Sequence record: MT496969.1
Origin: Escherichia phage Mt1B1_P3
Strand: one strand, 5' to 3'
Length of the DNA: 40,313 nucleotides
Numbering within the stretch: the first letter of the stretch is position 1; every line of letters begins with the position of its first letter. A program made the translations under genes and the position numbers. Positions 14,295 through 40,313 of this stretch are shown in pieces. Under the pieces are notes generated by a model. It did not search any database and was not told the origin of the DNA. It saw nothing but the letters and a program-made list of their open reading frames with translations.

Positions 14295-14317
14295 AGTCCC
14301 TATAGTGATAGTTAAGG
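14295..14317 (-). promoter_or_regulatory. Phage RNAP promoter phi13, TSS about 14300
   Basis: Minus strand CCTTAACTATCACTATAGGGACT; embedded between 12-bp perfect inverted repeats (14285-14296 / 14323-14334). Confidence 0.65.
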
Positions 14318-16699: not shown

Positions 16700-16708
16700 A
16701 GGCCCTCC

Positions 16709-16936
16709 TTAAATCATACTCATTAGGACGTATCCCTCAGCGATGTCACCAACGTCAGCAATGTGGACAACCTTACGTGCTACCTGTTGTCCAGTATACC
16801 CGTTGTCCCACTCATTCAGGATAAGCCAATCGCCAACCTTAAAGTCCCGGTCGTTAAGTCTCAGCTCTGCTGTCTTTAGACCTAGTTGTACCGGACCAAA
16901 GTGCTGGCGGTGAATCTTCAGGTTGTGACTAGCCAT
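16709..16936 (-). CDS. Small ASCH/PUA-like (DUF3850-like) protein inserted between tail tubular genes
   Basis: 75 aa MASHNLKIHRQHFGPVQLGLKTAELRLNDRDFKVGDWLILNEW...: HxLKIxxxxFxxVxxGxKTxExRxNDRDxxVGDxLxLxEW pattern typical of DUF3850. ATG overlaps gp11 stop (TAATG), GGAGGG RBS. No T7 counterpart at this position. Confidence 0.75.
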   Translation of the reverse strand: MASHNLKIHRQHFGPVQLGLKTAELRLNDRDFKVGDWLILNEWDNGYTGQQVARKVVHIADVGDIAEGYVLMSMI

Positions 16937-17502
16937 TAGTCCCTCCCGATGTCAGACATCATGTTGTAGCGACCAGTGTCCATCTCGTACTCCATAACCT
17001 GCTGATAGAGTTCTGCTTCCTGCTCACGAAGGTATAGCTCTGACTCTGGGCTACCGAAGAACTTAGCGTTGAACTCACGGCTAGCTTTAGTGACGATGTA
17101 GTCCCTGAAGACCACAGGCATCTCGGAGAATGGCTTCATCTCCACAAGCTCTACCGTGATGGGGTCGGTGAAAGTGGTTGACTGAGTGGATAGGTCGTAC
17201 AGGTATCCACCCATGTTGCTGTAGTAGCTGGTGGCCCCAGCGGTCATTACGCGAAGGTATGACGGCAAGAATCGAATCCTATTGTCTTGGACATCAGGTG
17301 TCAGGACAGCAGCTTCATTGATATTAAAGTTCCAGCCTTTAGCTTGGACCTGACGATTGACACGATGCAGGATACGTTGAGCGTTCGAGACGTCAGCGTT
17401 CCCCTCGTCAAGCTGTAGGACTGCTGGTTCACCGATAGCAGCTAACATATCGTTGATGGCGTCTAAGTCATCGTTAGCATTCAGTGGAATGTATTGAGCC
17501 AT
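16936..17502 (-). CDS. 11: Tail tubular protein A (gp11)
   Basis: 188 aa; aligns with T7 gp11 (DAINDMLAAIGEP..., NAQRILHRVNRQVQAKGWNFN). Confidence 0.93.
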   Translation of the reverse strand: MAQYIPLNANDDLDAINDMLAAIGEPAVLQLDEGNADVSNAQRILHRVNRQVQAKGWNFNINEAAVLTPDVQDNRIRFLPSYLRVMTAGATSYYSNMGGYLYDLSTQSTTFTDPITVELVEMKPFSEMPVVFRDYIVTKASREFNAKFFGSPESELYLREQEAELYQQVMEYEMDTGRYNMMSDIGRD

Positions 17503-17618
17503 AGGTTTACTCCTTAACGGTCATAGGCGCTAGACGGTGAGCTGGACAGCAGGTACGCCCAGAATAAGACGAATAGTGCTAACCCTGTGTAAATAAGGAC
17601 CATAGTACCTCCTTAAGC

Positions 17619-17654
17619 AAAAAACCCCTCAAGCACCCGAAGGCACCCAAGGGG
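17619..17654 (-). terminator. Tphi-like terminator downstream of the capsid gene
   Basis: Minus RNA CCCCUUGGGUGCCUUCGGGUGCUUGAGGGG followed by UUUUUU; near-identical architecture to T7 Tphi (AACCCCTTGGGGCCTCTAAACGGGTCTTGAGGGGTTTTTTG). Confidence 0.8.
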
Positions 17655-17660
17655 TTTCAA

Positions 17661-18937: not shown

Positions 18938-18960
18938 TCTCCCTATAGTGATAGTTTAGT
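18938..18960 (-). promoter_or_regulatory. Phage RNAP promoter phi10, TSS about 18943
   Basis: Minus strand ACTAAACTATCACTATAGGGAGA; initiating GGGAGA identical to T7 class III promoters; directly upstream of capsid gene. Confidence 0.7.
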
Positions 18961-40111: not shown

Positions 40112-40313
40112 AGAGACTCAAAGAAGACCTATAGCCTCTACCTATCGTCCTTCCATAAGCCATAGCCTAGACCTATCGTTGACCTGAAGTCCTGACCATC
40201 GGTCCAACCTTATGACAGACTGGCTGTGACTGCAAGGAGTAGTAACGGGTAGGGCCTTTGGTCTGGACTTAAAGAGGGCCTATGGGGAGACTTGAGGTTC
40301 TTGAACTGTGAGA
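40112..40313. repeat. Right direct terminal repeat (DTR)
   Basis: Identical to bases 1-202. Confidence 0.85.

Follow-up and report, generated by a model that had tools for sequence, protein, structure and literature searches.

The stretch of DNA analysed here (hereafter the window: 40,313 nucleotides of Escherichia phage Mt1B1_P3, sequence record MT496969.1) is a complete T7-family genome in the reverse complement of the usual T7 map, in which a small gene encoding a stand-alone DUF3850 protein runs right to left between genes 11 and 12, which encode the two tail tubular proteins (Table 1). The region of interest is 100% identical to Escherichia phage vB_EcoA_ASO2B and to Kayfunavirus MT1B1P3, the encoded protein is identical to ASO2B_037, and the late half of the window is about 95% identical to phage K1F. 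The window is bounded by exact 202-bp direct terminal repeats (1-202 and 40112-40313).

Table 1. Features at and around the gene 11/gene 12 junction, in window coordinates.
Feature	Coordinates	Strand	Remarks
DUF3850 gene (11.05), stand-alone 75-aa CDS	16709..16936	minus	ATG start; sequence MASHNLKIHRQHFGPVQLGLKTAELRLNDRDFKVGDWLILNEWDNGYTGQQVARKVVHIADVGDIAEGYVLMSMI
Gene 11, tail tubular protein A (gatekeeper/adaptor), 188 aa	16936..17502	minus	PHROG 446 tail, E 8e-68
Gene 12, tail tubular protein B (nozzle), 785 aa	14342..16699	minus	PHROG 457 tail, E 5e-283
TAATG overlap	16934..16938	minus	gene 11 stop (16938-16936) overlaps DUF3850-gene ATG (16936-16934); one base shared
Shine-Dalgarno GGGAGGG	16941..16947	minus	inside last gene 11 codons (GGG AGG GAC, Gly-Arg-Asp)
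Second Shine-Dalgarno AAGGAGGG plus 3-nt spacer CCT	16700..16710	minus	overlaps DUF3850-gene stop; serves gene 12
Phage-RNAP promoter phi10	18938..18959	minus	upstream of gene 10; nearest upstream of DUF3850 gene; consensus match
T-phi-like intrinsic terminator	17613..17656	minus	downstream of gene 10; coordinates mapped from ASO2B annotation
Phage-RNAP promoter, phi13 equivalent	14295..14316	minus	next promoter, just past gene 12; consensus match
29-aa hydrophobic mini-ORF	17514-17603	minus	sequence MVLIYTGLALFVLFWAYLLSSSPSSAYDR; strong AAGGAGG Shine-Dalgarno; directly after T-phi, before gene 11

The minus-strand junction is GGGAGGGACTAATGGCT, and on the coding strand the translation signals read GGGAGGG-ACTAATG-GCT, the Shine-Dalgarno lying 4 nt upstream of the ATG. 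The same overlap is present in all 32 filled locus entries examined, some contigs having been entered twice. At the other end of the gene, the second Shine-Dalgarno, AAGGAGGG, and the CCT spacer lie at the 3' end of a 237-bp segment that is missing in K1F. The original prediction, made from the letters of the window, had described an open reading frame with a DUF3850 signature, inserted between genes 11 and 12 when compared with T7 and coupled to gp11. The insertion is confirmed as a clean 237-bp indel relative to T7 and K1F, and the coupling signals, the TAATG overlap and the GGGAGGG Shine-Dalgarno, are read in the sequence as claimed. Translation of the DUF3850 gene is probably coupled to that of gene 11.

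The DUF3850 signature, for which the original prediction had quoted residues 6-43, was recovered by profile searches. Pfam DUF3850 (PF12961) matches residues 4-73 over profile positions 2-76 of 77, with an E-value of 1.9e-19 and 70.1 bits against a gathering threshold of 22.9, Pfam ASCH (PF04266, of the PUA-like clan) scores 26.2 bits against a cut-off of 21.2, and PHROG 986 matches with an E-value of 2.8e-35. Comparison with diverged copies yields dN/dS values of 0.07-0.14 (Nei-Gojobori), and the GC content of the gene (0.48) and its GC3 agree with the rest of the genome. The open reading frame is a real, constrained gene, far beyond what chance would produce. Rfam and tRNA scans of the whole window returned no RNA family or tRNA, and none over the DUF3850 gene. 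An antisense 56-aa open reading frame (16743..16913, plus strand) was set aside, as the codon-level constraint sits in the minus-strand frame. The protein had no match in NCBIfam and a single sub-threshold match in PADLOC (E 0.007), and by these two scans it is not a member of a known defence or named family. No nuclease domain was detected in it either, Pfam returning DUF3850 and ASCH only and the NCBIfam and PADLOC scans having also been run.

A sequence search against solved structures returned one match, PDB 3IUW (E 1e-10, or 3e-19 with a profile), a structural-genomics DUF3850 structure of the "activating signal cointegrator" NP_814290.1 from Enterococcus faecalis V583. An AlphaFold2 model computed with 18 homologues (pLDDT 81.6) has the order strand-helix-strand-strand-strand-strand, and Foldseek superimposes it on 3IUW with a TM-score of 0.83-0.86. 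Bona fide ASCH proteins come next, namely PH0355 (8.2), YqfB (7.6), PF0470 (7.0), and 3S9X and ZmASCH (both 6.5), the EVE and YTH readers falling at 6-7. The ASCH/PUA-like fold put forward in the original prediction was thus found by both profile and structure comparison, and the model shows the protein as a predicted stand-alone, minimal ASCH/PUA-like β-barrel. The 3IUW protein shares this fold but belongs to a Gram-positive bacterium and not to a tail operon, and its name is a homology label only. The other comparable proteins, namely ZmASCH (a Zymomonas mobilis ssRNA-specific ribonuclease), the ASCH/EVE/YTH readers of type IV restriction enzymes and those of toxin-antitoxin systems, span 110-160 aa with additional helices that form a basic cleft, or are fused to nucleases, whereas the Mt1B1_P3 protein is a bare 75-aa barrel of 8.5 kDa with a near-neutral pI of 6.4.

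An exhaustive HMMER search retrieved 5,324 representatives of clusters at 50% identity (E<=0.001); of the best 150, 147 could be aligned over the domain. In these 147 representatives, invariance reaches at least 90% at 16 positions (H4, L6, K7, G19, K21, E24, R26, N28, D29, R30, G35, D36, L38, L40, E42 and G49), and the Mt1B1_P3 protein keeps all 16; the proline of the LKxxP motif (P10, 85% Pro in the family) is an arginine in it. The ASCH motif GxKxxExR is present as G19-L-K21-T-A-E24-L-R26 in the helix 1-strand 2 segment, and H4, K7, the NDR triplet (N28-D29-R30), D36 and E42 are invariant polar residues specific to DUF3850, beyond the ASCH motif. With about ten charged or polar residues invariant on so small a barrel, a specific pocket or an active site is more plausible than the generic binding of polymers, against which the near-neutral pI also speaks.

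The contiguous segment formed by the end of gene 11, the open reading frame and the start of gene 12 occurs in 157 phage records, and tblastn with the DUF3850 protein retrieved 154 records at >=80% identity; about 220 Kayfunavirus genomes have been sequenced. The orthologues (CR44b 11.05, PE3-1, EcoDS1, vB_EcoP_F, FFK3, EPr2 and others, about 150 records) share the junction and TAATG, and most are 96-100% identical. GenBank labels them variously as "hypothetical protein", "RNA-binding protein" (the PHROG label), "DUF3850 domain-containing protein", "activating signal cointegrator" or "11.05", and the gene at this junction is an already annotated, ordinary feature of the genus. The original prediction had called such a gene unexpected inside a structural operon. 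This holds for the protein family, which is found at other loci away from gp11 and gp12, and does not hold for Kayfunavirus, where the arrangement is the norm.

Copies that are 67-73% identical, from metagenomic T7-like contigs, lie at the same site with the same TAATG, and a neighbour-joining tree of 168 family members places every Kayfunavirus copy in a single clade. Since they are monophyletic and the diverged copies occupy the same site, these data indicate that the gene was acquired once and has resided in the genus for a long time. A recent foreign insertion was rejected, given the genome-like GC and GC3 and the 67-73% identical copies at the same site.

Two intact open reading frames at the same site depart from the family pattern. 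CR44b gene 11.05 (L116, 2067-2291) is only 45% identical, has SIP in place of NDR and has also lost K7 and E24, and the copy of Pectobacterium phage LET1 (L120, 2801-3019) has YDE in place of NDR. If NDR is essential, these frames could reflect neofunctionalisation or have been kept for another reason.

An uninterrupted, empty junction was present in 24 phage records among the matches listed and in 11 of 24 IMG/VR loci. K1F and Zappy differ from the window by the clean indel described above, and their gp12 is 98-99% identical to that of the window; the K1F junction reads GGGAGGGACTAATGCC. ZG49 (L094) has the same K1F-type empty site, with gp11 100% and gp12 98% identical. The DUF3850 gene is therefore not present in every phage with the same tail, and its absence from K1F and Zappy despite near-identical gp12 argues that it is not an obligatory tail component. 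SFP20, which is more diverged (gp12 74% identical), also lacks the gene, as do Dev2, SH3 and SH4 (PMC4925675).

Empty sites fall into two types. In the K1F type, the embedded Shine-Dalgarno GGGAG[G/A]G is kept and TAATG is fused directly to gene 12. In the type represented by SFP20, Dev2 and SH4, gene 11 ends in GGT CGA GAC TAA and is followed by an 11-13-nt spacer, and these sites have a Shine-Dalgarno of their own. All filled loci and the K1F-type empty sites contain GGGAG[G/A]G, and every spacer-type site read has GGT CGA GAC; the embedded Shine-Dalgarno, which uses the rare AGG codon, is in no spacer-type genome whose junction was read. Because all filled and no spacer-type genomes carry it, we infer a T7-like ancestral state, represented by the spacer type, and regard the filled state as derived. 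The K1F-type sites would then be secondary, precise deletions, which would have arisen at least twice or spread by recombination, since their flanks match different filled haplotypes.

Between the window and locus L090, gene 11 has a dS of 0.24 and a dN of 0, whereas the adjoining DUF3850 gene has a dS of about 2.1, and by this contrast the gene 11 stop is a sharp recombination breakpoint. The divergence of the DUF3850 gene tracks the gp12 type and not gp11. A mosaic boundary lies at window position 16936 in comparisons with L090, L093 and L021, where gene 11 is near-identical and gp12 has 74% amino acid identity; either gp12 type (785 aa or 789 aa) can be found both in phages that have the DUF3850 gene and in phages that lack it.

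The gene 11/gene 12 junction also holds other open reading frames. Klebsiella phage vB-KpnLmqsRe27-1 (L008, 856-1296) carries a 146-aa Endonuclease VII-type frame there (PF02945, E 6e-25), and in Enterobacter cloacae phage B1 an extra 158-aa frame (ORF41) follows the DUF3850 gene (PMC12785254). The junction looks like a recurrent insertion hotspot. Since the same junction accommodates both of these frames, we infer that the DUF3850 gene sits there because the slot is permissive and not because of a role in the tail.

Nine matches to the K1F phage-RNAP promoter consensus were found in the window against zero expected by chance, all of them on the minus strand. The same scan detected no promoter between T-phi and the phi13 equivalent, so genes 11, 11.05 and 12 would be transcribed by read-through of T-phi. 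The DUF3850 gene would thereby be transcribed late, together with the tail genes, and its translation would be coupled to that of gene 11 through TAATG and a Shine-Dalgarno built of synonymous codons at the gene 11 end. From these signals, the product should be late and of low-to-moderate abundance. The mini-ORF located between T-phi and gene 11 is 83-100% identical in 44 Kayfunavirus records and is unannotated in ASO2B; it is missing in K1F, whose spacer between genes 10 and 11 is about 96 nt shorter.

Outside Kayfunavirus, 68 other IMG/VR phage loci carry a homologue with no gp11 or gp12 within about 4 kb. In Erwinia phage Midgardsormr38 the homologue (65% identity) lies in the nin region, between the replicative helicase and NinX/NinB, and in the K1-specific siphophage K1ind1 (61% identity) it lies in a small-gene region. 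Other sites are the early region of T1-like phages and, in P2-like phages, the vicinity of replication gene A. For 39 of the 68 loci, 145 neighbour proteins were compared with Pfam, and the families identified were NinB, NinG, late regulators of the sigma-70 region 4 type, HNH endonucleases, the P2-type replication protein GPA, primases, Dam and N6_N4 methylases and Mom. No dominant partner family emerged among the neighbours at these 39 non-T7 loci, which share a general replication/nin setting only.

About half of the aligned representatives have extra sequence beyond the DUF3850 domain, and the fusions include DUF551 (8 of 61) and a dATP/dGTP pyrophosphohydrolase. ParB-CTPase-DUF3850 fusions are encoded next to parA, and one of them binds CTP (PMC12704722); they occur on prophages and ICEs, an example being TnSmu1 smu_194c (PMC10098952). 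They carry the same domain, likewise on mobile elements, although there it accompanies a CTP-binding ParB fold beside parA, whereas here it stands alone beside tail genes. Taken together, fusions and neighbours suggest DNA or nucleotides at least as much as RNA, and the "RNA-binding" name is only a label inherited from the superfamily. Our literature search, which included ASCH proteins in phages and anti-defence screens, found no experimental function for any DUF3850 protein. IMG/VR contig 3300037277_000110 (L078, 3533-4234) encodes a 233-aa protein with a DnaA C-terminal helix-turn-helix (PF08299, E 1e-10) and a C-terminal DUF3850 domain, an architecture of which we found no mention in the literature consulted on the family.

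We propose, with moderate confidence, that the DUF3850 gene is a dispensable, non-structural accessory gene whose late product stays outside the virion, binds a nucleotide or base and has a part in phage-host conflict or in nucleic-acid metabolism. It would have been acquired once, by the ancestor of most Kayfunavirus, in the permissive slot between genes 11 and 12. By analogy with the characterised ASCH/PUA-like proteins, all of which work in this manner, the invariant residues would surround a pocket accommodating a nucleoside or a base that is flipped out and possibly modified. The characterised relatives include YqfB and EOLA1, which act on ac4C (PMC9599836), ZmASCH, which acts on ssRNA, and the ASCH/EVE/YTH readers, which act on modified bases; in addition, the ASCH-like protein BapA is a 5hmC glycosylase (2026 preprint). 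The Mt1B1_P3 protein thus probably binds, and perhaps processes by hydrolysis, a specific nucleotide or a base in DNA or RNA within the infected cell, and the benefit would lie in phage-host conflict or nucleic-acid metabolism, not in tail building. What speaks against this reading is the loss of the NDR motif from the frames kept in CR44b and LET1; in addition, the location of the gene and its coupling would also fit a role in assembly.

The latter objection leads to a tail-associated explanation, in which the protein is a minor virion component, a chaperone of gp11/gp12 assembly, or a cargo ejected with the tail or core at the start of infection. The sequence signals, which place a late gene inside the tail pair and couple it to gp11, are what such a role would predict, as is a divergence that follows the gp12 type, and the T4 proteins Ip1-3 provide a precedent for injected anti-defence factors (PMC12373910). 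Virion data bear on it little: we found no whole-virion proteome of a gene-carrying phage in the literature, the SH3 and SH4 proteomes come from non-carriers, and the study of phage B1 virions relied on excised gel bands in which neither gp11 nor gp12 was detected (PMC12785254), which makes it too shallow. The K1F-type phages nevertheless do without the gene while having near-identical gp12 and, in ZG49, an identical gp11, elsewhere the family is found in the early, replication or nin regions of temperate phages, siphophages and myophages, and its invariant residues make up a polar, pocket-like set rather than an interface pattern. We accordingly regard a tail-associated role as improbable. 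It is very unlikely that the gene is instead a selfish or neutral passenger, either a homing-type cassette or a frame kept mainly because it carries the translation signals of gene 12. Presence/absence polymorphism with identical junctions, the sharp breakpoint at the gene 11 stop, the Endonuclease VII-type frame in the Klebsiella phage and the retention of frames devoid of the NDR motif in CR44b and LET1 would all suit a passenger. They have to be set against a dN/dS of about 0.1, invariant residues that are kept in nearly all copies, a single site and a single clade that co-diverges with gp12, and scans that matched no nuclease family (Pfam, NCBIfam, PADLOC); moreover, gene 12 has its own strong Shine-Dalgarno and functions without the frame in K1F.

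A further rival is a YqfB/EOLA1-type N4-acylcytidine (ac4C) amidohydrolase, with modified cytidine as the substrate to be salvaged or detoxified. The catalytic residues of YqfB are Lys21, Thr24, Arg26 and Glu74 (PMC9599836); in a profile alignment to the Escherichia coli protein, G19, K21, T22 and R26 fall in identical register, and the two proteins are alike in being small and non-basic. However, at the position of the YqfB nucleophile Thr24 the Mt1B1_P3 protein has Glu24, a glutamate that is 99% invariant in the family, and the DUF3850 chain stops at residue 75 as a β-strand, with no equivalent of the helical segment that bears Glu74. Conversely, YqfB has none of the DUF3850-specific H4, K7, NDR, D36 and E42. 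We rejected a YqfB-type amidohydrolase on the loss of Thr24 and Glu74, despite the conserved Lys21 and Arg26, and consider it the least probable of the explanations discussed here. Alternatively, and as a tentative idea that we rate as unlikely, the protein would be an uncharacterised enzyme or specific reader, as its roughly ten invariant polar residues suggest. It would be made together with the tail and either be carried or ejected with the particle or be deployed late as a counter-defence against a host system in which a modified base or nucleotide is the means of marking, sensing or cleaving nucleic acids. If a counter-defence function were true, DUF3850 would constitute a new anti-defence family common to thousands of temperate and virulent phages.

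DUF3850 is a large family of phages and mobile elements, as judged from the number of clusters retrieved above, and the Kayfunavirus copy is an unusually clean test case: the phage is lytic, with a 40-kb genome, only one gene of 228 bp is involved, and expression is simple and predictable. Natural, isogenic-like relatives with and without the gene exist, K1F among them, with its late region about 95% identical, and comparing carrier/non-carrier pairs on sets of defence systems could show what the family as a whole does.

Two further observations concern related genomes. A Kayfunavirus-like gp12 nozzle of 1001 aa, encoded by a Logan contig (SRR17238234; L093, 3740-6745), has a GDSL/SGNH lipase-esterase domain (PF00657, PF13472) inserted within its Phage_nozzle domain. 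Records OR786095.1, PV615262.1 and PV485104.1 are plainly Kayfunavirus coliphage-like genomes, yet the hosts given for them are Staphylococcus aureus, Acinetobacter baumannii or Klebsiella; for this genus the first two hosts look implausible, and contamination or mislabelling may be the cause.
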